From: Centroscyllium fabricii
Taxonomy: Eukaryota
Direction: 5' to 3'
Length of the DNA: 64,000 nt
NCBI GenBank assembly: GCA_051313645.2
Contig: JBNRSN020000018.1
Span: 15,500,001-15,564,000, forward strand
Shown here: one piece after another, positions 1 through 62,698 of the stretch
Numbering within the stretch: position 1 is the first letter of the stretch
Layout of the letters: every line of letters starts with the position of its first letter
Made by a program: the position numbers and the translations under genes
Notes under the pieces: model-generated
Seen by the model: the letters and a program-made list of their open reading frames with translations, nothing else
Told to the model about the DNA's origin: nothing
The model's database searches: none

Positions 1-1345
1 AGGCACAAGAATTGTACAGCAGCCAGCATTAAAACGATTTGCACCCTTAGAAAACAATGGAGCTCTAACGGGAGAGGTTAGGGTTGCCATTAAACCATTA
101 CCAGCGGTTTAGCTGGACAAAAGGATGCAGTAACCGTTTTTAAAAGACAATACCTGCAATAATTGGAAAGACATTAGGCACTCAACATTTTGGGTATAAC
201 TGTTGGACATTTTGAACAGTTCGCTCTCTTATGATTTAGGACTCTTGGAATCGACCTCTTGAAGCAGTGAGGTCTGTAGCTCTCTTCTCTTGATTCTTTG
301 GAAGCGGTTGGAGCTCTTGGAGAAGGCTCTGGAATCTTGATCTCGAAGCTTGAGGGTAGCTCAGTGAAGGTATAGCAGTGACTTTGGGTGGGCCCTCCTT
401 TCGAAGACTCCCGTTCAGCTTTCTGGGTGCAGGGCAAGCAGGGTGTAGGTTCTGGCAGGACAGTAGAGCTGGGTCAGGGCTGTATCGCATCGGAAGACCA
501 TTGCTGGTGAGGTAGTTGGTTGTTGGGGCCCCGTAGCAAAGCAGCTAATTGAACACTGCGAATAAGCTGACGTTCGAAGAGTGGGAAAGGCGAGTAAGCT
601 AGCAGCCCATTACAGTTGGCTCGAGAGGGCAGGATCGGCATACCCCAGGGTCCGGTTCAGCCAGGGAGACGGTGCGGTTGGTGCGAGGAGGTAGAGAAGC
701 CTCGAGGAACCCGTCCGGGACCAGCCCGAGCAGAAGCAGCCACCGCCAAGAGGGAGAAGAAAACAAGTGGGCTCCCGAATCTTCCACAGCCACGTGACGA
801 CCGACGCTGCAGCCGAAGGACGAAGAAGCTTCGTAGCTGACCCTGAGTTTGACCGAGTGGTGAGCATGTGCCCCGATCCTACACACCTGGACATAGCTAG
901 GCAATAGAGGGAAGGGTGGCTTATTTGGGTGAATTTATAGAGTGATTGCCCCGATTTACGATGTGCCGTGCGTTCCCCATCCTATAAGTTGCTTGTGTTT
1001 ATGTTTATATATATATTTGGGAAACGACTGTTTGCATATGATACTGTGTTGGTTTTATGAAGTACAATCTAACTGCTGTATATATATATCTGTTGTGGTA
1101 ATAAAATCATCCAATTTTCGAAACTCTTATTCAAAGTGTCAACTTGAGTCCAACCTTTATCCATCACGTTTCACGTCACGTCTCTCTTCCTGCATCTAAG
1201 TCCAGCATCTAGAACCGTAAGGGTGAGCGATTCGAACCGCTCACGGGGGAGGAGGTTATTGCGCGAGGCCTAGCGGACGGCTAGAGCAAGGCAGTAACGG
1301 ACCCCAAGTCGTGAATAAAACACACGGCGCACGCCCCTTACAACA
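1..1345 (+). mobile_element. 3' part of a long LTR-like element (probably Gypsy-type), left end outside the window
   Basis: Non-coding. AATAAA near 1100 and 1314. Ends ...TTACAACA abutting the middle of an HE1 SINE that resumes at 1346. Confidence 0.55.
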
Positions 1346-1428
1346 CAGATAGTACCCGAGGCTGGATTTGAACCCGGGTCTCCAGTGCTGTAAGGCAACA
1401 GTGCTAACCACTATGCCACCGTGCCGCC
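1346..1428 (-). mobile_element. HE1-type SINE, tRNA-derived head only
   Basis: Reverse complement has GGCATAGTGG (A box) and GGTTCAAATCC (B box), same as the other copies. Confidence 0.85.
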
Positions 1429-1429
1429 C

Positions 1430-1690
1430 TATGTCTGAGAGGGGAGAAATTCCTTCACTCAGAGTGTGGTGAATCTTTGTAATTCTCTGCCCCAAAGGGC
1501 TGTGGATGCTCAGTCGTTGAGTATACTCAGGGCTGAGATCGATAGATTTTTGGACTCTCGGGGGGAATCAAGTGATATGGGGATCGGGCGGGATAGTGGA
1601 GCTGAGGTCAAAGATCAGCCGTGATCTTATTGAATGGCGGAGCAGGCTCGAGGGGGCTGTGTGGCCGACTCCTGCTCCTAATTCTTAAGA
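1430..1690 (+). mobile_element. CR1 LINE 3' fragment
   Basis: Degenerate FFTQRVVNLWNSLP region plus CR1 3' UTR (gatcagccgtgatcttattgaatggcggagcaggctcg). Confidence 0.8.
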
Positions 1691-2338
1691 TTTTTTAATT
1701 TGCTTATGTGATGTGGGCGTCGCTGGAAAGGCCAGCATTTATTGCCCATCCCTAATTGCCCTTGAGATATGTTCTAATGTTCTTATTGCATATCCCTTCT
1801 GTGGGCCAATTAGATTGTAAAATTTAGGAAGCCTGAGAAAGAACTTTATTATTAAAAACAAGAAGAGGCAATGATACAAAAATTACAAGTTCAGGCGAAT
1901 ACAACTACATAGGTTGTTTTGCTACCTGTTGTAAAAAAATGTTTTGTTGGTTTTAGATCTGCCCAAATGACATTCTTCCAGTAAAATAGCCGAAAGTAGC
2001 AGGAAATTCAATCATCTTTGCAAATACTTACACAAGTTCTGACTTCTGTGTGCGACCTTTGCCCTTCCAACCCATTTTACCGAACAAACCAAAAAGAGTA
2101 AAATTCCTCTTATTGCGCAGTGTCTCAAATCGGCATTTAATTATTTGTCCTTTTATTTAAGCACAATGCAAAGTTTGACTGTGTGTGCTTCCTGTAAGTG
2201 CAGGTGCAACGGTTACGCTAAAGCTAATGTACAACTGAGTGGTCGACCTGCAAAAACCGTACCAAACAGCCACTTCGCTGGCATAATAGCACTCCGAGTG
2301 GACAAAATGGAAGAGCAGTGCGAACAAGATAAACCAAG

Positions 2339-2606
2339 TGTTACTGAATTAACGACCTCAGAGACGAGATATTAAGAGGTGAAACAATCGGCTTTTATTA
2401 GCTAAAGGTGGGCATGCACCAGCTAGTCGACCGTCCCCAGGAATGGCTGGGGGAAGGGAGACGGCCGCTTATGTACCTGATCCAGGGGAGGAGGAGTCAC
2501 AGGCGGGGCCAGCATGGGCATGTCCAGGTAGCAATACACAGTGAACTATTGTACAACATGGTTACAGAGATATATACATATATATATTACAACATGGTTT
2601 ACCACA
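2339..2606 (-). mobile_element. Solo LTR (268 bp)
   Basis: TG...CA ends, 5-bp TSD CCAAG at 2334-2338 and 2607-2611, AATAAA on the minus strand. Confidence 0.8.
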
Positions 2607-3279
2607 CCAAGATTCAGTGATGACTTTCTGCAACTTATAGTAGATGGTGTGAGGGGCAATGCCAGGTGTTCTGGACGGAGCTGTCCCCGGGGGTAAAAGG
2701 GAGCAGGCCCTGCGATTCCTGGGGCTTACCTTGAGATGCAAGCCCATTGTGCTCGAGTAAACGAGGCGCATGGGGGGCATTCCTGGGACGCCTCCTCAAT
2801 TCCCTGGCAATGTGGCGTAGGGGAAGCCAGATGCCCCAAGAAGCTGGCAGTGGGCTTGCGCTGGGGACACCGTCATCACCTCCCGCCCCCCGCCCCCAGC
2901 CCAATCAGATTGGAGAGCCTGAGGGGCCTGGTTGCAAGCTAGAACCAGGAAATTTAGTCCGACTGGGTCAAACGTAGTATGCTTCAGCAACTGCTTGCCA
3001 CAGGAGATTAAGACACTGCCCTTTGAACTCTGGAACTAGGGATTGAATCCAGCCCACCCAGGCAGGATGAACGTCTCTTCACTCTATTGGATGTAAAGGT
3101 TCTGCATGAAATGAACTTGGACTCGCTTTTTAACATTCGTTTATGGGATGTGGGTGTCGCTCGCAAGGCCGGCATTTATTGCCCATCCCTAATTACCCTT
3201 GAGGAGGTGGTGGTGAGCCGCCTTCTTGAACTGCTGCAGTCCGTGAGGTGAAGGTGCTCCCACAGTGCTGTTGAGAATA

Positions 3280-3697
3280 CAGGACCAGGCCCGTGCCGGG
3301 AAAGTGAAAAAAACGGTAGAATGAAGTCGGTCAGTGCGCATGCGCGCACCATTCAAAATGGCCGCGCGCATGCCCACAACATTGGAAATGGCCGCCGAAC
3401 GTCCTTGCTGAGTCTCGGCTGCGGTTTGTGCCTCCTGATGACGGCTAGCAGGCTGCTCCGGGGAACTGCGCACTTCACCATGGCGGGTGCTCGAGACTCG
3501 CACATTCAAAACCCGGCGCGAGCCGCCGCGCCCTGATGCCATGGAAGTCCCGGCTCGTCCGGCAGCCGTTTTGAATGATCTGCCGAAGCCTCGATCGTGG
3601 CTGCCATTTTGCGCATGCGCAGGGCAGTCGGGGCAATTTATTCCAGACCACTAAAGTTGCCGGCGTTTCGGGTAACGGATTACCGGTGCTCAACCTG
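3280..3697. mobile_element. pogo/Tigger-like MITE with degenerate left end
   Basis: TA|CAGG ... CAACCTG|TA. Right end resembles the CAGGTTGAGCA Tigger terminus; left TIR matches only 4 bp. Confidence 0.5.
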
Positions 3698-3788
3698 TAT
3701 AAGAACATAAGAAATAGGAGCAGGAGTAGGCCATTTGGCCCTTCGAGCCTGCTCTGCCACTCAATGAGATCATGGCTGATCTTCTGCC

Positions 3789-4745
3789 TCAACTCCATTC
3801 ACCATATCCCTTGATGCCCTTACTAATCAGAAATCTATCGACTTCTGTTTTGAATATACCCAATGACTGAGCCTCCAGAGCCCTCTGGGGTAGAGAATTC
3901 CAAAGATTCCCCACCCTCTTTGTGAAGAAATTTCTTCTCATCTCAGTCCTGAATGGCCTACCCTTTATCCTGAGGCTGTGGCTCCTGGTTCTAGTCTCCC
4001 CAGCCAAGGGAAACCTTTTCCCAGCATCCACCCTATCAAGCCCTGTAATAATTTTGTCTGCTTCAATGAGATCCCCTCTCATTCTTTTGAATTCAAGAGA
4101 ATACAGGCCTAGTTTACTCAATCTCTTCTCATACGACAGTCCCACCATCCCAGGAATCAATCCCGTGAACCTTCGCTGCACTCCCTCAATGGCACATATA
4201 TCCTTCCTTAGGTAAGGAGACCAAAATTGTACACAGTACTCCAGGTGTGGTCTCAGCAAGGCCCTATATAATTGGTGTAAGACTTCTTTACTCCTGTACT
4301 CAAATCCTCTTGTAATGAAGGCCAGCATACCATTTGCATTCCTAATGGCTTTCTGCACCTGCACATTCACTTTCAGTAACTCATGTACAAGGGCACCCAG
4401 GTCCCTTTGAGCATCGGCATTCCCCAATCTTTCACCATTTAGGAAATACTCTGCCTTTCTGTTTTTTCTATCAAAGTGGATAACTTCACATTTATCCACA
4501 TTATATTCCATCTGCCATGTTCTCGCCCACTCACTGAGCCTGTTGAGATCCCCTTGAAGCCTCTTCACATCCTCTTCACAACTGACACTGACACCTAGCT
4601 TTGTATCATCCGCAAATTTGGAAATGTTACATTTAGTCCCCTCATCCAAATCATTGATATAGATTGTGAATAGCTGGGGCCTAAGCACCGATCCTTGCAG
4701 TATCCCACTAGTCGCAGCCTGCCACCCTGAAAAAGACCCGTTCAT
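3789..4745 (-). pseudogene. CR1 ORF2 reverse transcriptase C-terminal fragment
   Basis: LQGSVLRPQLFTIYINDL, KFADDTK, RPHLEYCVQFWSP. Frameshifted from the upstream 4829-5230 piece. Confidence 0.9.
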
Positions 4746-5800
4746 CTCTACTCTTTGTTTTCTGTCAGTTAACCAGTTCTCAACCTATGCTAGTATATTA
4801 CCCCCAGTTTCATGTGCCCTAATTTTGTTCACCAACCTCTTGTGTGGGACCTTATTGAAGGCCTCCTGAAAATCCAAATGCACCACATCACTGGTTGCCC
4901 TTTGTCTACTCCACTAGTTACTTCCTCAAAAAACTCCAATAGGTTTGTCAAACAGGATTTCCCTTTCATAAATCGATGTTGACTCTGCCCAATCTTACTA
5001 TTAGTTTCTAAGTGCCCCGTTATTGCATCCTTTACAATAGATTCCAGCATTTTCCCAACTACTGATGTGAGGCTAACAGGTCTGTAGTTCCCCGTTATCT
5101 CTCTCCCTCCTTTCTTAAATAGCGGGGTTACATTTGCTATCCTGCAATCTGCAGAAACCGTTCCAGAATCTATAGAATTTTGGAAGATGACAACCAATGC
5201 ATCCACTATTCCAATGGCCACCTCTTTCAAAACCCTAGGATGTAGGTCATCCGATCCTTTGAGATTTATCGACTTTTAGTCCCATTAATTTTGCTAGTAC
5301 TGTTTTTTTACTAATAATAATTTCTTTAAGTTCCTCATTCTTGCCACACCCTTGGTTTTCTTGAATTTCTGGGAGGTTTTTTGTCTCTTCCTCCGTGAAG
5401 TCAGAAACAAAGTATTTATTTAATTTCACTGTCATTTCCTCATTCCCCATTATAAATTTTCCCATCTCTGACATTTACCTTCGCCAGTCTTTTCCTTTTC
5501 ACATACTTATAGAAGATTTTACAATCCGTTTTTTTAATTTTTCGCTAGTTGGTGCTCATAATGCATTTTCCCTTTTTTATTAATTTCTTGGTCCACCTTT
5601 GCTGATTTCTAAAAAGATCTCAATCCTCAGGCTGACCGCTTTTTCTGGCAACTTTATAAGCTTCCTCCTTTGACTTAATACTAGCTTTAATGTCCTTTGT
5701 TAGCCCTGGTTGGATCACTTTTCCTTCTGGGTTTTTATGCCCTAGAGGAATATATGTTTGTTGCAAATTATGCATTATTTCCTTGAATGTTAGCCATTGT

Positions 5801-6200
5801 ATAGAAACATAGAAACATAGAAACTAGGAGCAGGAGTCGGCCTTTCGGCCCTTCGAGCCTGTTCCGCCATTCAATGAGATCATGGCTGATCATCCAAACC
5901 CAGTACCCCACCCCTGCCCTCTCCCCATATCCCTCGATCCCTATCGAGCCTGCATCGACACATATCCCACCCTATCCCTGTAACCCCACATATTCAATTT
6001 CCCTAACACTAAGGGTCAATTTATCCTGGCCAATCAACCTAATCCACACATCTTTGGACTGTGGGAGGAAACCGGAGCACCCGGTGGAAACCCACGCAGA
6101 CACGGGGAGAATGTGCAAACTCCACACAGATAGTACCCGAGGCTGGATTTGAACCCGGGTCTCCAGTGCTGTGAGACAACAGTGCTAACCACTGCGCCAC
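5801..6200 (-). mobile_element. HE1-type V-SINE, full length, inserted in CR1
   Basis: tRNA head, V-core (gtggagtttgcacattctccccgtgtctgcgtgggtttcc), CR1 tail, (TTTCTATG)n. Confidence 0.9.
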
Positions 6201-8439
6201 CTTCATACCCTTTAGTGTAGTCTCCCAATCTACCATGGCCAATTTGTCCCTCTTACCCTTGTAGTTTCCTCTGTTTATGTTGAATACCTTAGTTTCAGAT
6301 TGGATGACATCGCTCTCAAACCTAATGTAAAATTCAATCATATTATGGTCACTTATCCCTAAAGGCCCCTTTACCCCAAGATTATTGATTAGCCCTTTCT
6401 CATTGTACGGTACCAGATCCAGAATAGCCTGTTCCCTGGTTGGTTCCTCCACATACTGATCCAGGAAACCATCTCGTATGCATTCCAAGAATTCGTCCTC
6501 CACACCATTAGTGGTAATTTGATTTGCCCAGTCAATATGTAGATTAAAGTCCCCCATGATTACCGTATTGCCCTTGTTACATGCACTTTTAATTTCTTTA
6601 TTGATACGGTGCCCTACATTACTACTACTGTTTGGTGGCCTATACACAACTCCCACCAATGTTTTCCGCCCTTGGTTGTTTCTTAGCTCCACCCAAACTG
6701 ATTCCAGTTCTACATCACGATCTGTCGAGCCAAGATCTTTTATCTCTACCGTACCGATCTCATCCCTTATTAACAGCGCTACACCACCTCCTTTTCCTTT
6801 TTGTCTGCCCTTCCTAAATGTTGAGTACCCTGGAACAGTCAGTTCCCAGCTTTGTTTACCCTGCAACCATGGGCTCGATTTTGCCAGGCCCGAGGAGGCG
6901 GAATTGGAGGCGTGTGAGGTGGTAAAATCGCAAAAGATGGCGGGCGGGCCTGTTCCTGCCTCCATCCCGCCTCTGAGCAATTTTCCCAAATTACTGTTTT
7001 CCGACCCCATTTCCATCCCGCTTGCAAGAGGCGGGATAGACCTGTAAGGCCCTTAATAACCACTTAATTGCCTCTATAATCCCATTTTGAGAGGCCTTTC
7101 CAATTTTACCACTTTTTCCACCTGCTGCACGTCTCTTCTGGAACACGCCAGTGGATCCTGCCAGCCTCACAAGTGGACTGCTTACTAACAGCTGCAGCTC
7201 CACCATTGAAAAGGAGTTTTCACCAATCATCATTTGCAGGTGGCAGAACTTTGCTGTCTCAGGTCTGGGGGAACTTTTAGCCGGCCTACTCATTGTTGTG
7301 GAAGTTTGGAGCCTGAGACTCATCTCCAGTGTGACCTCCTGGGAAACCTCTCTCCCCACCTTGACTGAGCACTTCTTCTTCAACTGAAGCATATTCCAGA
7401 AGCATGGGAACCATTTATTTCCTTTCCTTCTGGACATCAGATTCAGACAAAGATCAGTCGTGGCAGCAGCAGAACCATAAACAACAGCAGCACCAACAGC
7501 AGCAGCAAAAACAGGAGCACCAAGTGGCTGCTCACCCACCTGAAGCTGCACAGGCCAGAAGGAGCCAACATACGACTACATTGCTGCCCGGGATGTAAGG
7601 GACGCACTCATCTTGGCCAGATTTGCTTAGTCTGCACAATCAAACACTTTGGCCTCGCAACTTCTTATCAGATCATCGATAATGGCCAAGAACCTGCAGA
7701 TTCCTATCACCCTGACCACCATGCTAACTAATGCAAGTCACCCTAAGCCCTCAATGTGGAAGTCTAATTTGCGAAATGACACACGCCACAACTGCAACAG
7801 TTTGCCATCAGAACTTTTTATGACAATAAGCAATTGATGGCATTTTTAAAATAAACACACAAGTGACTACCCTTGTGACTACTTGTGCATTCTCTTACTC
7901 TTATGCGTGCTCCTACGTGGTGCTTCCCCTGCGGCTTCAGCAGATGTGGAGGCCCCCTGCTCACGTTCTTGCTGCTCCTGTCTCGACACCTTTGGCAGGC
8001 ATCCTCTGAGGTTATGAGCCTGTGAGGGCTCGGCAACAGTCTGCTGCTCCTGCGGCTATGCAGGAGTTGAGACACTGATCCCAGTTGGGTGGGGACTCTG
8101 GTGGGGCTCTGACCGAGGGCTCTGCAGTGGCATGGTTGTGTGAGCACTTGGAGAGGAGCCCCCACTTCCTTGATGTCTGCTACCAACATCCCTCTCATGG
8201 GTCAGCCCCACTTCAGAGCTAGCAAGTGGGTGGACAGCATGTTGTAAGTTGTTGTCATTGCATCACAGTGATAGAGAGTGTGGGGGCTGCATGGTCAAAT
8301 AATTAGGTGAATGTGACTGTAGAGAGAGAGGGAATGGGTAAAGGTGCAAGGATGTAAGTGTCAAGTGGGATGTGGAAGAAGAGTGCTTGTGAGGAGAGGC
8401 GATGGGGATGAGATTGAGGGTGATGGGAAAGTCATACTC

Positions 8440-8606
8440 ATTTTTCCTGTGTGGAGAAGGTCAGGAAACCTCTTCCTGCACTGCAGCCAGGTTCTGCGGC
8501 ACTTAGAGATGGAGTTGACCTCCTGGGCCAATTGCAGCCATGCAGCTTTAGTCTAGAGGGAGGGCTCATCAGAGCGAGGTGCACACTTTTGCTTGCTGGT
8601 GGACAT
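8440..8606 (-). pseudogene. Harbinger Myb/SANT-like DNA-binding protein remnant
   Basis: Manual translation MSTSKQKCAPRSDEPSL*TKAAWLQLAQEVNSISKCRRTWLQCRKRFPDLL; W..A..V...R.W.QCRKRF.DL signature. Confidence 0.75.
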
Positions 8607-8772
8607 GGTCGGTAAATGAAGTCCTTCATACAATATCCAAAGCATTTCCAGTCTCCAGAAGAAGCATGGCTGCTTGCAGGCCTTAAATCCAGCAGCACTG
8701 ATGGTGTCATCAGAGGCGACTTTCAGGATGGAAAGATTAATTGGGCCAGGGGTTCCCACACACTGGAAATCA

Positions 8773-29352: not shown

Positions 29353-30400
29353 GGCCCAGAAATTCGGGTTGGAGGCTTCCTGCGAGTGAAAGCCTCCAAC
29401 CCACACTTACGGAGTGCACCTGCCGTTCTCCTCTTCTAATAATTAATAATAATAATTCAACTTTATTGTCATTATACAATGTACAAGTACATGAACAACG
29501 AAATGTGATCTTGCAAGCTCCCAAGAGTCCAGCAAAGCCGCTGCGTCTGTGCGCGCCGCCATTCCATCTTTCCATCATTCCGACAATCTTCAGCTAACCG
29601 CCCCTCCCCGGGGCTCCTTTCGTGACCTTCTGCACCTGGCATTCCCTGGTGGTCGCCCCTCCAAGTATTAACCAGGCCTGGCTCTGCTTAGCTTCCAAGC
29701 CTTGCCAGTGGCCCTGTCCCTAGTCCCAGGAACAGGGAGTTGAACTCCCGATGCTAGGCCCTACTCCAGGCCCCACGCGCCGCGCTGAGGCAACTCAGTG
29801 TTGGAGTTAGTGCGAGAGCCCGCGCGGGACCACGTGGTCTGCGGGGAGCCAATCACAGCGAAGAATGCTCCATTCATAACTTTGACAGGCAGAACTGTCA
29901 AAGTTATGAAATACAAGAGCCCCAAAAACACATTAAACATCAAAATAACTTAAAAATTTTTTTTTTTTAACATTACTGTCACTAACATACATTAGCTATT
30001 TTAAACAAAAAATAAAAAATTTGAAAAAATATTTGAAGTGGGCTAAAAAACGACTTACCTTTGTTTAAATTATTTAAAAATAAAAAACCTGTGTAAAAAA
30101 TACTTAAATTGAATAAAACAGAGACTTACCTGATGAAAAGGGGTCGTTAGGGCTGATATTTTCATCCGTACCTTTCCCGATACTTACCCTGCTAAAAAAC
30201 TTGGGAAAAAAATCGGGATTTCAGTGCGCACCTCCTAGCGCGCAGGCCAACGCGCTCCGGCTCCTGACCCCTCCAGACCCGGCATCGGAAGTGCTGGTTC
30301 TGTGCGCATGCTCGGTGTACGCACCGAACCAGCACTTCTGAGGGTCGCACGCGTGAGTACACCGTCCGTACTCGCGCGGTGTGGCCCTAATTTCTGGGCC
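29353..30400. mobile_element. Harbinger-type MITE (F1)
   Basis: GGCCCAGAAATT perfect 12-bp TIR, TSD AAT/AAT. Confidence 0.85.
29438..29736 (-). mobile_element. 5S-rRNA-derived SINE with Rex/Babar tail (copy 1)
   Basis: Reverse complement has GAAGCTAAGCAGAGCCAGGCCTGGTTAATACTTGGAGGGGCGACCACCAGGGAATGCCAGGTGC (5S internal control region) and tail aatgacaataaagttgaa(TTA)n. Confidence 0.8.
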
Positions 30401-33932: not shown

Positions 33933-34652
33933 GGGCCAGAAATTGCAGTCTGCCCATATCGCGCCAGAGCTTAAACCCGCAGGAAGCAGCCGGTTGCGCT
34001 GCTTCGGGTTTTCCTATGCCGACCAGCGGCGGGGTTGGAGTTACTGCGAGGGCTAGCGCAGGAAGCAGCGAACTAGGGGTTGCATCCAGTAATTTGTTTT
34101 TGTTTTTTACTTTTGCTATGGACCAAGATTCTACGCTGGGAAAAAGCAGTCGTAAGTATCCGTTTTTATCTGGTAAGAGTGTATTTTATTGATTTTAATT
34201 GTTGTTTTTTTAGGTTTTTAATTGTTGATAACTTTAAAGACAGGTAAGTATTTTTTTAGACCTGTTGGAAGTTGAAGATTTTCTTTTTTCTTTAAAATAG
34301 GTCATTTGTGTTGGTTGGTGTAATGTTAAAAAAATGTGGTGTTTGTAAAATTTTATTTTTGTGTTTAGATGTCTTTTGGGCAATCTCTCCTTTCAGAACT
34401 TGCACAGATTTCTCTGTGGAAGTTTTGAACGGAGAATTGGTTCCACTGATTGGCTCCCTGCTAATCAGGTGGTCTCAAAACCAATCTCGCACTAATTACG
34501 CCCTTCAGATGCCCATGAAGCTCGCACGGAGCTCTGACAAGCTGGGCTAACGGGAATTTCTCAGTGCAAAAAAGCAAACCTGAATATGGGCAGTTCAAGT
34601 GCGTTAAGCAGGTACTGCACCCGCACGAAGGCTCCACTGCAATTTCTGGGCC
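33933..34652. mobile_element. Harbinger-type MITE (F1)
   Basis: 17-bp TIR GG(G/C)CCAGAAATTGCAGT, flanks AAT/ATT. Confidence 0.85.
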
Positions 34653-34848: not shown

Positions 34849-36627
34849 GGTTAGATACATAGATACATAGATGATAGGAGCAGGAGTAGGCTATTCGGCC
34901 CTTCGAGCCTGCTCCGCCATTCAATGAGATCATGGCTGATCCTTCAGTTCAGTATCCCGTCCCTGCCTTCTCTCCGTAACCTTTAACCCCTTTTGCCTGC
35001 AGAAATATATCTAATTCCCTCTTAAATATATTTAATGAGCTGGCGTCCACTGCCCTCTGTGGCAGTGAGTTCCACAGGTTCACCACTCTCTGGGTGAAGA
35101 AATTCCTCCTCATCTCTGTCCTAAATGGTTTAGCCCTTATCCTTAAACTGTGTCCCCTAGTTCTGTACTCTCCTGCCATCGGAAACATTCCTTCTGCATC
35201 TAGTCTGTCCAGGCCTGTCAGAATTTTATATGTTTCTATGAGATCCCCTCTCAATCTTCTAAACTCCAGTGTGTACATCCCCAAACTACATAGTCTCTCC
35301 TCATAGGTCATTCCTGCCATTCCTGGTATCAGCCTGGTGAATCGCCGCTGCACTCCTTCCATGGCAAGAACATCCTTCCTCAGATGAGGCGACCAAAACT
35401 GCACACAGTACTCGAGGTGTGGTCTCACCAGTGCCCTGTACAGCTGTAGTAAGGTGTCCTTGTTCCTGTATTCTAACCCTTTTGATATGAAGGCCAGCAT
35501 ACCATTTGCCTTCCTGACCGCCTGTTGCACCTGCATGCTCGCCTTCAATGACTGGTGTACAAGAACTCCCAGGTCTCTCTGTACTTCCCCATCTCCCAAT
35601 CGATTGCCATTTAAATAATAATTTGCCCTCCCGTTTTTGCCCCCAAGGTGGATAACTTCACACTTATCCACATTATAGTGCATTTGCCATGTATCTGCCC
35701 AGTCCCCCAATTTGTCCAAATCGCTCTGGAGCTTCCTGATCCCCTCCTCTGAGCCTACCCCCCCTCCTAGTTTAGTGTCGTCTGCGAATTTGGAGATGCT
35801 GCATCCGATTCCCTGATCTAGGTCATTAATATAAATTGTGAACAGCTGGGGACCCAGGACAGATCCCTGAGGTACCCCACTTGTTACTGCCTGCCATTCA
35901 GAAAATGAGCCGTTTATTCCAACTCTCTGTTTTCTATCTGCCAGCCAGTTCTCTATCCACGTCAATACTTTTCCCCTTATCCCATGCGCCTTGATTTTAC
36001 ATGCTAGTCTTTTATGTGGGACCTTATCGAAGGCTTTTTGGAAGTCCAGGTACACCACATCTACTGGCTCTCCCCCATCTATTTTACCAGTTACTTCCTC
36101 AAAGAATTCTAATAGATTCGTCAAGCACGATTTACCTTTTGTAAATTCATGTTGACTCTGTCCTATCCTGTCCCCATTTGCCAAGTGCTCTGCTATTACA
36201 TCCTTAATGATGGACTCTAATATTTTGCCCACCACCGATGTAAGGCTTACAGGTCTGTAATTACCCGCTTTTTCCCTACCCCCCTTTTTAAATAGTGGGA
36301 TAACGTTAGCTACCCTCCAATCCATGGGCACTGTTCCCGAGTCTATCGAATTCTGGAAAATTATCCTTAACGCATCTGCTATCTCTAGGGCCACCTCCTT
36401 GAGTACCCTAGGATGCATGTTATCAGGCCCTGGGGATTTGTCAGCCTTTAGTCCCTTTAGCTTCCCCAACACCATATCCTTAGAGATATTGATTTTTGTC
36501 AGTTCCTCCCTTGCAATTGTCCCTATGGTTCCCAATATCTCAGGGAGGTTTTTTGTGTCTTCCCTTGTGAAGACAGACCCAAAATATGCATTTAATTGGT
36601 CTGCCATTTCCTTGTTTCCCATTATAT
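34849..36627 (-). mobile_element. Young 5'-truncated CR1 LINE
   Basis: 8-bp TSD ATGGGACA; ORF2 uninterrupted over about 560 codons. Confidence 0.92.
34949..36627 (-). CDS. CR1 ORF2 reverse transcriptase, intact reading frame but lacking the endonuclease
   Basis: KSPGPD, NYRPVSLTS, YLDFQKAFDKV, GVPQGSVLGP, KFADDTK. The first ~63 aa of the 622-aa ORF are flank read-through. Confidence 0.85.
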
Positions 36628-40872: not shown

Positions 40873-41809
40873 GGGCCATGTTTTCCTGTGCTCCAGAGGA
40901 GCTTCACACCCACGAAGGGGGTTCAGAAATGCCTCGTGGGTGTGAAGCACGGGTGATTCCCACAAACGTCAATTTCCTGTGCTGATGGGGAAGGAGCTTC
41001 AGCTTCCAACGCAGGAAGACTTTGAACTGCCGATTTCCTGCAGCTGCTCAAAATGCGTGTGTTATCACGTGGACATTTCTGTCTTGAGCTGCACATTTAC
41101 AAATCAGTCGTTGATGGTGAGAAACATGTTGAAAAGCTTTAAAAGGTAAGTTTTTTTTTAATTCCTTTGGTGATGTGTGTGTGTGGTCTTTCAGCTTTTA
41201 AATGGAAGTGTTTTTTTTTCTTTTTGTTTAATTTTTTAAAAAACGGGTTTTTAAACGGGTTTTCAGCAGTTCTGGTGGCTTTTCTTAAAAGCACTTTTAC
41301 CTTATCTCAGAAGACAGCAGCTGGTTAATTTTTACCTTAGGAATGAGGAACCAGTGTTTAAAAAAGAAAATGCTGCAAAACTGTTAAAAACCTGTTTTTA
41401 AAAAAAAAAAAAAAAAATGGGTTTTTAACAGTTTTACAGCATTTTCTTTTTTAAACACTGGTTCCTCATTCCTAAGGTAAAAATTAACCAGCTGCTGTCT
41501 TCTAAAGTGCTTTTACATAGCTGCTGTTTTTGGTGGGGTTTTCAGATCTTTTCACCTGCTGAAAGCCTTTGCTTTCTGCAGGATTCTGTGCTTTGTGCGG
41601 GGGAAAAAGCCGACCTCAGTGGGCGTGGCCTGCTCACAACCCACGCACAAAGCACCTTGCAGCAACAAAAGCCAGACCCCCACGCAGCAAAAAAACCCGG
41701 CATTTTCAGCAGGAAATCGGCGTCAGAAAAAAAAAAATTACGTGCGCGTGCACCACGGGTGCACGGGAGCGCGCACCCGCGGCAAACGGGCCACAGGAAA
41801 ACATGGCCT
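40873..41809. mobile_element. Harbinger-type MITE (F4) with central palindrome
   Basis: 18-bp TIR GGGCCATGTTTTCCTGTG (1 mismatch), TSD AAT/AAT. Confidence 0.85.
41309..41503. repeat. Inverted repeat, 84-bp arms, 27-bp A-rich spacer
   Basis: 41309-41392 vs 41420-41503, one mismatch seen. Confidence 0.9.
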
Positions 41810-58870: not shown

Positions 58871-59985
58871 GGGCCCTGTCTTCCTGTGCTCCAGAAGAGC
58901 TGCCCCCCCACGAAAATGCTTCGTGGGGAGGCAGCTCAGGTGCTTACCAGAAACGTGAACTTCCTGTGCTGATGGGCAAGGGGCTTCAGCTTCCTCCCCA
59001 CGAAGCACTTTGAGCTGCAGACTTCCTGTACTCTGATGCTCAAAATTCAGGTGTACAACTTGGGGAAGCCTCCATTTTTCTGCCCACGTAAATACCAGTC
59101 TTAAGAGAGTGCAGGCAGGTTTGAGAAGTGAAAAAAACAGGTTTAAAGTTTTTTAAAAAATTATTCCTTTGGAGATATTTGTTTGTAGTCTTACAGCTTG
59201 TAAATGTGATGGTTTTTATATTTTTTTGTGATAGGTCAAAAATCGGCGATTTGAACCCTTGGCAGCTCTCAGCTGAAACAGCTCTCCCTCACAGCTCTCA
59301 GCGTATAAATCGCCGATTTTTTAACTATCACCAAAAAATAGATAAAGCTTTATGTTTGTTGTCTTACAGCTTGTAAATCTGCTGGTTTATATATTTTTTT
59401 GTGAAATTTTAAAAAATCGGGAATTTGAGCTGTTCAAATTCCCGATTTTTTAAAATTTCACAAAAAAATATATAAACCAGCAGATTTACAAGCTGTAAGA
59501 CAACAAACATAAAGCTTTATCTATTTTTTGGTGATAGTTAAAAAATCGGCGATTTATACGCTGAGAGCTGTGAGGGAGAGCTGTTTCAGATGAGAGCTGC
59601 CAAGGGTTCAAATCGCCGATTTTTGACCTATCACAAAAAAATATAAAAACCATCACATTTACAAGCTGTAAGACCAGCTTCCTACAAACTGAAAAAAAAC
59701 AAAGAAAAACTTCTTCCTTACCTGTTCTTTTCTTTAGTTGAACACTTGATTTTCTTTGATCTGTGCGTTCTGTGGGGGCGTGGTCTCAAAAAGCCGACCT
59801 CAGGGGGCGTGTCCTGCACCCGACCAACGCACAAAGCACTACGCACCAAAAAAAAACAGACCCCTGCCCACGAAAAAAAATCGACATTTCACACAGGAAG
59901 TCCAGCAGATAAAAAAATAAAAAATCTCGGACGGGTGCAAATCTGCACGCACCCGCAGCAACCAGGCCACAGGAAGACAGGGCCC
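58871..59985. mobile_element. Harbinger-type MITE (F4) with giant central palindrome
   Basis: 18-bp perfect TIR GGGCCCTGTCTTCCTGTG, flanks AAT/ATT. Confidence 0.9.
59188..59674. repeat. Near-perfect palindrome, 241-bp arms, 5-bp spacer
   Basis: 59188-59428 vs 59434-59674, spacer GCTGT, one mismatch seen. Confidence 0.92.
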
Positions 59986-60547
59986 ATTGTGTAAATTTGA
60001 CTCTCCACAAAATTAAAATTAGTTTTCCGGGGACAGAATGTTAGCTTAAGGCCCTGTCACACCTTGACGTTTTAGCCAGCGTATGCAAATTTGGCGAAAA
60101 CGTTGGTTTACGTCGGATACGTTATGGGTAAGTTTTGTATACGTTAAGAGCACGCTGGCATACGCTGGCATACGCTGGCATACGTCGTTGAGTCGAGAAA
60201 TTTTGAGCATGCACAAAATTTCTCGACGTATCCTGCGTATGACTCACACGTTCCGCATACGCTGGCCATAAGTTGTAGGCACGTTAGGCGATCGTTGACA
60301 CACGTCGACACACGTTACTTGTAAGTTAGTCATAAGTCAAAATACGTCGAGATAATGTCTAGCGTACCCGAAACTTATTTCTAACCTATGAGTAACGTGC
60401 TTTGAACCTATGTGTAACGTATCTCCAACGCATATTGACGTATGTAGACGTATTTGACGTCTTCCTGACGACCACAGAACTTACTGAATGTGTTTCTAAC
60501 TTACAGCTACCGTATAATGGCGTATTGGCAGCGTTTAGGGGAATTGG

Positions 60548-60556
60548 TATATAAAA
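60548..60556 (+). promoter_or_regulatory. Candidate TATA box of the transposase gene
   Basis: TATATAAAA about 75 bp upstream of the ATG at 60629; AATAAA at 62143-62148 downstream of the stop. Confidence 0.5.
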
Positions 60557-60628
60557 AATGGGGTTCACAGGAGGAACCCGTCAGTGTTCCAGACTCCATG
60601 GTGAGCAGATGTCCATGTCATCCGAGAG

Positions 60629-62115
60629 ATGGAGGATCCGGCAAGACGAGAATACCTACTAGCTGTCCTCCAACATCAACATGCCCTCATCGATTTGACA
60701 CTGTACCAGTTGCGTGCCAATAGAGCCAAGAGAAGAATAGGTGAACGGAGGAGAAGGAACTGGGTGAGACCATGGATCGGGAGGCGACGGCAGTTTGGCA
60801 TGTATGACCAGCTCATGGTGGAACTCCGTAACGAGGACCATGCATCCTTCACCAACTTCCTGCGTATGCCCCCAGCGATGTTCGACGAGCTGCTAGCCAG
60901 AGTGGGTCCAAGGATAACCAAGCAGTACACCTTCTACAGGGATCCGCTTGAGCCTGGCATGAAGCTGGCACTGACTTTGCGTCACCTTGCCTCTGGAAAC
61001 AAGTATGCCTCGATGAAGTTCGCATGGAGGGTCCCTCACAACACCCAGTCCCTAGTGGTCAGAGAAGTCTGTCAAGCCATTATTGACGAATACGTGGATG
61101 AGGTGATGGTTTGCCCAAGTACTCCTGATGGTTGGCGCGCCATAGCTGACAAGTTCTTCCAACGATGGAACTTTCCCCATACATGTGGGGCACTTGACGG
61201 GAAGCACGTGGCCTGCCGCTGTCCTCCAAAGACTGGGTCCCAATACTACAACTACAAAGGATTCTACTCCATTGTTCTGATGGCGCTTGTGGATGCTGAC
61301 TACAAATTCATTTGGGCAGATGTCGGCGGTACTGGATCTGCATCAGATGCGCAGATATACAATGACTCTGAGCTGAAGGAATGCGCTGAAGACGGTACCC
61401 TTCGTTTCACTGACCCTGAGCCTCTTCCCAACGACAACCAGGACGTGCCTTACTTCTTTATCGGTGACGATGCCTTCGCCTTACGACCAACCATGATGAA
61501 GCCATACAGCCTCCGTGGTCTGACGAATGAACAACGCATCTTCAACTACAGGCTTAGCCGAGCAAGGAGGGTAGTAGAAAATGCATTCGGCATCCTGGCT
61601 AACAGATTCCAGGTTCTGCTAAGTACCATGCAGCATCACCCCTCCACTGTCAAGCTCATTGTCAAAGCATGCTTGATCCTGCACAACCTCATGAGGACCA
61701 GGTAATTCATGTTTACATAGCATATATTATACAGTATACAATGAAATTTAACTTTTAGCCTATGCTTATAAACATTATATGATTTACCTTAAATTTTACA
61801 TGTATCATTATATTACTTTTTAATGTACAGCGCATTAGAATATATGTTTTTATTATAGGTGCGCTTTATAAGTAAATAAAATCAAATTCAAATTCCAGGT
61901 ACCCAGGACTACAGAACCAGCAGCTTGACCGGGCAGAGAATGAGAACCGCGACCTTGTTCCAGGAGCATGGCGACAGGGACATCAGTTGGAGGATACACA
62001 GACAGCTACTGGCCCCAACACTGCCTCCAAGGACGGAAGGAAACAGAGGAATCTCCTCAAGCAATGGGTTAACTCCCCAGCTGGCGCAGTTCCGTGGCAA
62101 GATAGGATGATTTAG
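60629..62115 (+). CDS. PIF/Harbinger DDE transposase (HARBI1/ALP1-like family), 2 exons: 60629-61701 and 61899-62115, 429 aa
   Basis: FTNFLRM, GALDGKH (D), YYNYKGFYS, FIGDDAF (D), FNYRLSRARRVVENAFG (E), LHN. A GT-AG intron at 61702-61898 joins in frame to ...WVNSPAGAVPWQDRMI*. Confidence 0.93.
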
Positions 62116-62698
62116 ATATTTGTATTACTGCATTGTTCAGGCAATAAAGGACCTCAGAGACTTTCCTCCTGAAATGAACATCTTATAAAAAGCCTTTTTT
62201 TCAATTATCCACTTTTCAATATACATGTACATTATATTATTATACCTTTTTCAAAGTGTATGAATTTATTATTGTTAATTATTGTTTATGATTTAAATTA
62301 TAAAACAATAACATCAACAAACATCAAGAGTTTGCTCAACTTGATCGTCGGCGAAACGCTGCCGCGCGCTATGCATAAGTTAGACTAGCGTTGGGCATAA
62401 GTTGTGAACGCCGACAACACGCTAAGAATTCGTTGGTATAAGTTGGTATAAGTTATCTGTAAGTTATCGATACGCTCTGTGTACGTTACTAATACGTTAT
62501 GCATACGTCCATCTCGTTATGAATACGCTATTAAACGCCCAAAACTGAAAAAAACATCAATAGTTCAGCGAACGCCAGCGTTTTAGATAAATTTGCATAC
62601 GTCGGCATGCGCTAGCTAATTCGTCAAGGTGTGACAGGGCCTTTAGCAGTCAATGCGCTGTGAAATCCCCAGTTACACCTAACCCAACAAGGTCTAAC

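Follow-up and report, generated by a model that had tools for sequence, protein, structure and literature searches.

Harbingers with a single ORF, as well as their marine transfer, are already in print (PMC8437027, PMC13668399, PMC4482050 Table S1). In the sea krait L. colubrina, 2,263 intact transposase-only and 452 DNA-binding-only variants of Harbinger-Snek were counted, solo-ORF sea-urchin elements were published alongside, and it was deduced that such transfer is widespread in marine animals (PMC8437027). Further transposase-only consensus sequences are Harbinger-3_Adig (2,883 bp) and Harbinger_PCau (1,953 bp), both listed in Table S1 of PMC4482050. The coding derivatives of Harbinger-1M_cIno keep longer ends than the MITEs (PMC13668399). 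For fishes, the consulted part of PMC9179366 states that no single-ORF Harbinger was found in teleosts and that Harbingers were not detected in the elephant shark, and its authors asked for checks in other cartilaginous fishes. The shark element described here fills this gap.

The window, i.e., the whole stretch of DNA that was analyzed, comprises 64 kb of a Centroscyllium fabricii contig, and positions refer to it unless a related locus is named. The element located in it is real, was correctly described and belongs to an already known kind, the solo-ORF Harbingers.

Boundaries and classification of the element

The element is a PIF/Harbinger DNA transposon of 2,594 bp at 60049–62642, and the coordinates given in the original prediction are exact. 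The perfect 21-bp terminal inverted repeats (TIRs) and the TTA target-site duplication (TSD) claimed there were both recovered. By end-to-end comparison, the left TIR spans 60049–60069 (plus strand) and the right TIR 62622–62642 (minus strand), while TTA is located at 60046–60048, preceded by a C, and at 62643–62645, followed by a G. Beyond the TIRs, the two ends show gapped similarity to about 60 bp. The TIR core has two exact matches in the window, which are the element's own ends, and a third match with three mismatches is at chance level; the copy number of the element within the 64-kb window is one. For an empty-site test, no pre-insertion copy was found within the window, the flanks matching two different resident repeats.

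TIRs of PHIS elements are usually shorter than 60 bp and begin with A or G (PMC4482050). The 21-bp perfect TIR found here begins with A, the 3-bp TWA duplication is present as TTA on both sides, and the transposase is of the DDE_Tnp_4 type with an intact triad. Thereby, the element displays all PIF/Harbinger characters given in the consulted part of PMC4482050 except for the second ORF. Since no Myb/SANT/MADF ORF, as present in autonomous two-gene PIF/Harbinger elements, is located inside the TIRs, it is a solo-ORF member of the superfamily and not an autonomous element. One intact ORF lies between intact termini, as in the solo-ORF elements of the Harbinger-Snek type.

Membership in the Spy group, whose single-ORF PHIS elements insert into AAATTT without a TSD (PMC4482050), was ruled out by the TTA duplication. 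A domesticated HARBI1-type gene, which would be single-copy and devoid of TIRs and TSD, was ruled out by the perfect TIRs with TSD and by the multi-copy relatives in shrimp and hagfish. The insertion site reads C-TTA...TTA-G, as in the C-TNA-G target of the NuwaII group, the TIRs of which mostly begin with GG (PMC4482050); this is one site only, and the related loci L001 and L002-B (see below) have a G before TTA. Due to the TIR starting with AG and the relatives without flanking C, an assignment of the element to NuwaII is unlikely.

The termini and the TSD differ from those of the resident MITEs, as had been noted. The MITE-like units in the window (29353–30400, 33933–34652, 40873–41808 and 58871–59983) have termini of the GGGCC type and are flanked by AAT/ATT. 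As the Pangu group is defined by AWT/ANT duplications (PMC4482050), the resident units may, judged by their flanks, be Pangu-type MITEs. In the middle of the 1.1-kb unit at about 58871–59983, a near-perfect 241-bp palindrome with one mismatch and a 5-nt loop was observed (59188–59674), which is either a recent foldback or an assembly artefact. The related unit at about 40873–41808 contains a 91-bp hairpin.

Transposase gene and subterminal arrays

The coding sequence starts with the ATG at 60629, stops at 62115 and encodes 429 aa after splicing. The GT-AG intron, which is absent from the original prediction, is AT-rich, comprises 197 bp and is located at 61702–61898 (plus strand); the shrimp (P0125) and hagfish (P0130) predictions, in which the intron is left unspliced, stop at the same residue. 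According to profile search, alignment and structural model, exon 1 (60629–61701, plus strand, 358 codons) encodes a helical N-terminus, an Arg-rich stretch at about residues 30–53 and the catalytic core. Exon 2 (61899–62115, plus strand, including the stop codon) shows a gap-free alignment with the C-termini of the homologues. The Pfam search of the transposase returned DDE_Tnp_4, Plant_tran and DDE_Tnp_1 only (PF13359 with E 1e-30, PF04827 with E 5e-14). For exon 1, AlphaFold gave a confident model (pLDDT 90.7). Among the solved structures no sequence homologue was found, and the fold search revealed only weak DDE integrase/transposase folds (best E 0.01). The DDE triad is complete, as predicted, with D190 at 61196, D280 at 61466 and E317 at 61577 (plus strand), each common to 156 of 158 homologues.

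The TATA and polyA signals could be assigned as well. The TATA box at 60548–60558 is part of a core promoter candidate (60548–60585, plus strand) together with TCAGT at 60581–60585, which is presumably initiator-like. The polyadenylation signal AATAAA is located at 62143–62148 (plus strand). Three out-of-frame upstream ATGs (60598, 60609 and 60615) are found in the 5′ leader (60598–60628, plus strand), and the translation of the first 12 codons from 60598 is identical to the N-terminus of the Littorina prediction (12/12). An alternative first exon starting with the ATG at 60598 was rejected because the homologues begin at the residue matching 60629. The out-of-frame ATGs in 60598–60617, the first of which is conserved with the snail copy, might damp translation of the transposase.

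The description of the copy as intact holds for the reading frame and the triad, but not for a 2-residue deletion and the exchanges G259R and P261T. The two residues missing after position 5 are present in the near-identical hagfish and shrimp proteins. Rare residues were found at four conserved columns, including P261T (61409; P in 158 of 158) and G259R (61403; G in 144 of 159). Since the annotated hagfish and shrimp copies carry 2–6 rare-residue changes of the same type each, the changes are the ordinary slight decay of a young copy. Six of the 12 changes specific to the lineage of the window copy lead to residues that are common in distant homologues, compared to 10% expected at random (p 5e-4), so that the lineage likely evolved for some time under transposase selection before this copy inserted. 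Regardless of whether its own enzyme with G259R and P261T works, the copy can serve as a substrate.

Both ends are characterized by arrays of the 7-bp motif RYA(A/C)GYY. In total, 39 copies were observed at the two ends compared to 6.1 expected from shuffles, and two in the coding region; the motif was read off this element, which inflates the window count and leaves the count in L001 and the phasing as independent tests. The left array (60078–60525) contains 27 copies phased at 10.5–10.75 bp, which are predicted MADF binding sites, and the right array (62375–62603) contains 12 copies phased at 10.6 bp and no inward-facing TATA. In all three same-strand sets, the copies are phased at 10.5–10.75 bp with p<=0.001. 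At the left end of L001, 15 copies were counted versus 3.5 expected (maximum 12 in 2,000 shuffles), and the ends of the more distant L002 and L003 contain one and no copy, respectively. No description of helically phased Harbinger arrays was found in the literature searched. A 36-bp palindrome is located at 60192–60227 within the left array.

A CG core is present in 27 of the 39 motif copies, and six further sites with a TG or CA core could be decayed copies. The CpG o/e ratio amounts to 1.48 and 1.59 in the element ends, 0.61 in exon 1, 0.44 in exon 2 and 0.53 in the window. Masking of the repeated motif reduced the left-end ratio of 1.63 to 0.94 and the right-end ratio of 1.80 to 1.44. The predicted CpG richness of the ends is thus real, but it is confined to them, and the coding sequence is about as CpG-poor as the host. 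The enrichment derives largely from the motif itself and is of little value as an indicator of donor or age. As the CpGs of the ends lie largely in the repeated motif and the coding sequence is CpG-poor, the argument that a lack of CpG depletion fits a recent arrival is weak.

Distribution of the transposase among marine animals

The protein shares 87–96% identity with its counterparts from hagfish, shrimp, snail and sea urchin. In detail, the identity amounts to 94.4% over 431 columns for Myxine, 89–92% for Palaemon (shrimp), 87–91% for Littorina (snail) and 92% over 217 columns for the partial protein of the sea urchin Lytechinus variegatus. In a tree of 34 rows, consisting of organism-named hits and three loci, the window copy groups with those of hagfish, shrimp, snail and urchin in a single clade (support 99/93), its path length being 0.055 to hagfish and 0.096 to shrimp. 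Features beyond the coding frame agree with this, since 12 of 12 out-of-frame leader codons are as in the snail and the intron donor is as in the shrimp and hagfish predictions. Cartilaginous fishes, which are represented in the collection, are found among none of the 23 organism-named homologue representatives and none of the 19 named members of the two closest clusters. A resident CR1 element of the window, of which an ORF2 fragment with 557 open codons is located at 34952–36622 (minus strand), is only 62–75% identical to named elasmobranch CR1s and 51–54% to turtle and bird proteins. By this similarity, a cartilaginous fish is the likely host.

The horizontal acquisition considered in the original prediction is supported at the protein level by the identity across phyla and the common clade, and by these comparisons a horizontal transfer, whichever its direction, is well supported. 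The prediction's suggestion of an invertebrate donor is not supported, the nearest named relatives being the hagfish, which are vertebrates. The same relationship would also fit vertical descent, either of a domesticated gene or of an element conserved to an unusual degree. This is extremely improbable, however, given only about 0.1 substitutions per site to shrimp, the leader and intron shared across species, the perfect TIRs with TSD and the lack of cartilaginous fishes among the 23 named representatives and the 19 named members of the closest clusters. Furthermore, a grouping of the three jawed-vertebrate rows was rejected (AU p 0.0013), which is a blunt test because the group was named once the tree had been inspected and paralogous families are involved. 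In the open-licence literature, no published Harbinger transfer into sharks or hagfish was found.

The tree also contains fully supported pairs of transposases from catfish and scallop (P0053, P0166) and from oyster and toadfish (P0046, P0112), which suggest further marine transfers in the clade.

Missing partner gene and comparison with known systems

As predicted, there is no second gene: the coding sequence is flanked by 580 bp and 527 bp, in which no Myb/MADF gene or remnant was found. Neither with three partner profiles nor by tblastn could a MADF be detected in the element or in the 2,092 stop-to-stop ORFs of the window, the best E-values in the window being 3.4 and 9.6 for two MADF-partner profiles and 0.24 for the C-terminal profile. 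By comparison with the relatives, an AT-rich segment without coding remnant at 62160–62330 takes the place of the MADF gene in convergent two-gene elements. A remnant of a MADF 3′ UTR in 62116–62345 was considered and rejected, as the related loci gave no real DNA match (best E 0.097). A single AATAAA on the minus strand near 62270 is possibly due to chance and was not counted as evidence.

A scan of prokaryotic genome contigs resulted in eight related loci, of which two are short or truncated, three are distant (36–44%) and three, L001 to L003, are the closest with usable flanks, although only 54–71% identical to the window transposase. All three have a MADF-type gene nearby, two of them inside the element and one in adjacent modules. 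L001 (about 70%) aligns to the window transposase over residues 6–234 and 226–429, and its left end is designed as in the window, with TTA, a similar TIR and the ATG 581 bp in (580 in the window); the contig stops before the right end. For its convergent ORF, PF10545 was found in three of four non-self homologues and a MADF match in 11 of 27 scanned homologues. L003 (59%) has a convergent second ORF with a weak MADF match (E 0.068, below the Pfam cut-off), and its exons resemble those of L002 (E 3e-7 and 0.002).

In L002 (54–57%), a MADF-only module (390–4539; Pfam E 5e-4, below Pfam's cut-off) and a transposase-only module (5408–8709) with TTA on both sides are separated by 866 bp. Each module has one left and one right end, and TTA is missing from the left flank of the MADF module. 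Like ends agree at 76 of 102 and 75 of 112 aligned positions, unlike ends at 57–60. Such an arrangement is expected from two reciprocal deletions in a convergent ancestor, and the extent to which like ends have diverged suggests that the solo forms are old; sister families or a compound element are possible alternatives. The outer ends of L002 (390–8709) are mutually inverted repeats, and the module pair with its spacer might move as one compound unit. In L006, an ORF with a very weak MADF match (522–1379, minus strand; E 1.9) is located between two pieces of a distant transposase and is possibly a partner gene nested in an intron. L001 to L004 are animal-type Harbingers, some with introns, in contigs filed under bacterial MAGs, and one of them was annotated as a Sedimenticola protein (P0314). 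Judged by the introns and the eukaryote-type elements, the contigs are likely misbinned animal DNA or host contamination.

The transposase clade is accompanied by a MADF family of its own in similar hosts, and the hit lists of transposase and MADF share Dendronephthya, Thalassophryne and Lytechinus pictus as hosts. Among 20 looked-up MADF-partner clusters (of 85 hits), 10 have organism names, all of them other marine animals; regarding a cognate MADF, none of the 20 was named from Palaemon, Myxine, Littorina or a cartilaginous fish. Due to the multiple copies of both the annotated transposase and MADF genes, a comparison of scaffolds of the same species is uninformative.

Taken together, the element is probably a solo-transposase derivative of a two-gene ancestor that lost its MADF gene, is mobilized by the MADF protein of a related element acting on the phased arrays, and was brought horizontally into the cartilaginous-fish lineage. 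This is based on one copy in the 64-kb window, so that a movement of the solo form itself is a presumption. By the relatives, the ancestor would have had the layout end-transposase-MADF-end with convergent genes, and the solo form would have kept both ends after loss of the MADF gene. By analogy, a MADF protein supplied in trans by a related element would bind the phased arrays at the ends. As in Harbinger3_DR, it would then bind the transposase and bring the enzyme to the nucleus and the TIRs, where the DDE core would cut and paste at TWA.

The original prediction had left the choice between complementation in trans and Myb-independence. The former is probable, with MADF genes in the relatives and the arrays kept, and complementation by a MADF gene of the family is, by analogy, the likeliest mechanism; the latter is unlikely because the enzyme lacks any additional domain, the relatives are associated with MADF genes and arrays of a binding type were retained. 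An autonomous one-gene element with a Myb-independent transposase, comparable to the Spy elements, would account for the single gene, and the Arg-rich stretch could, by its sequence, act as its own nuclear signal. It is nevertheless very unlikely, as transposases from two-gene relatives have this stretch and domain layout as well, no DNA-binding domain was added, the phased arrays are shared with the MADF-bearing L001, and Spy elements make no TSD (PMC4482050), unlike the window element. Hardly probable either is the replacement of the lost partner by NAIF1 or an MSANTD, i.e., by a Myb-like protein that the host has domesticated: cartilaginous fishes possess NAIF1, MSANTD1, 2 and 4, and an interaction of NAIF1 with a Harbinger transposase was reported (PMC9392472), but the clade has a MADF family of its own in similar hosts.

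A less improbable alternative, though still an unlikely one, is a one-off deletion in place, by which a full two-gene element inserted and then lost its MADF gene, so that the solo form never moved. This would fit the sole copy in the window, its partial decay and the two nearest fetched relatives, L001 and L003, which are convergent two-gene elements, and an internal deletion is also the explanation given for solo-ORF Harbinger-Snek (PMC8437027). On the other hand, the loss is clean, without coding or promoter remnant and with the end array intact, as in the solo module of L002. Furthermore, Repbase Harbinger-1_SP is a consensus of 2,160 bp with a 429-aa transposase and no second ORF in Table S1 of PMC4482050, and a 430-aa S. 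purpuratus protein (P0023), probably of the same family, is 74% identical to the window transposase.

Going beyond the preferred loss of MADF with complementation in trans, it is conceivable, if doubtful, that no two-gene members are left at all. Transposase-only and MADF-only elements would then have been separate for long, mutually dependent and repeatedly co-transferred among cartilaginous fish, hagfish, shrimp, snail and urchin, with the phased MADF arrays as their shared code. In a permanently split family, every transfer would have to include two separate elements, which would bear on the spread of bipartite transposons. In addition, the four-phylum family with 87–96% protein identity is a young and well-conserved set for the reconstruction of an active element, and the phased 7-bp arrays are a direct and cheap handle on what the MADF partner binds.

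As far as the literature was searched, the cartilaginous-fish host, the spread over four phyla at high identity and the phased arrays are apparently new; the supplements of PMC8437027 may already list the family. Harbinger-Snek of the sea kraits is likewise a marine Harbinger that moved horizontally into a vertebrate, but full-length copies exist in Laticauda (269 intact), the host here is a cartilaginous fish, and the two are likened by description only (PMC8437027). Repbase Harbinger-1_SP (Harbinger-1_SPur) agrees in its 2,160 bp, TWA, a 429-aa DDE_Tnp_4 transposase and no second ORF listed (PMC4482050 Table S1); it differs in its TIR of 48 bp, and it too was compared by description, the link being the probable one through P0023. 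In Harbinger-1M_cIno of Caenorhabditis inopinata, the DDE and MADF genes are also located on separate TIR-flanked elements with a proposed supply in trans, which as here was concluded indirectly (PMC13668399). That element belongs to the nematode Turmoil2 lineage, its MADF-only form is the expanded one, only one DDE gene is intact, and the consulted part of PMC13668399 contains no claim of horizontal transfer. Harbinger3_DR belongs to the same TWA superfamily, and a short subterminal motif is recognized there by the Myb-like protein, which also imports the transposase (PMC9710019, PMC9392472). The two genes of Harbinger3_DR are located in one element and its motif comprises 9 bp, whereas the motif of the shark element comprises 7 bp and is organized in helically phased arrays.
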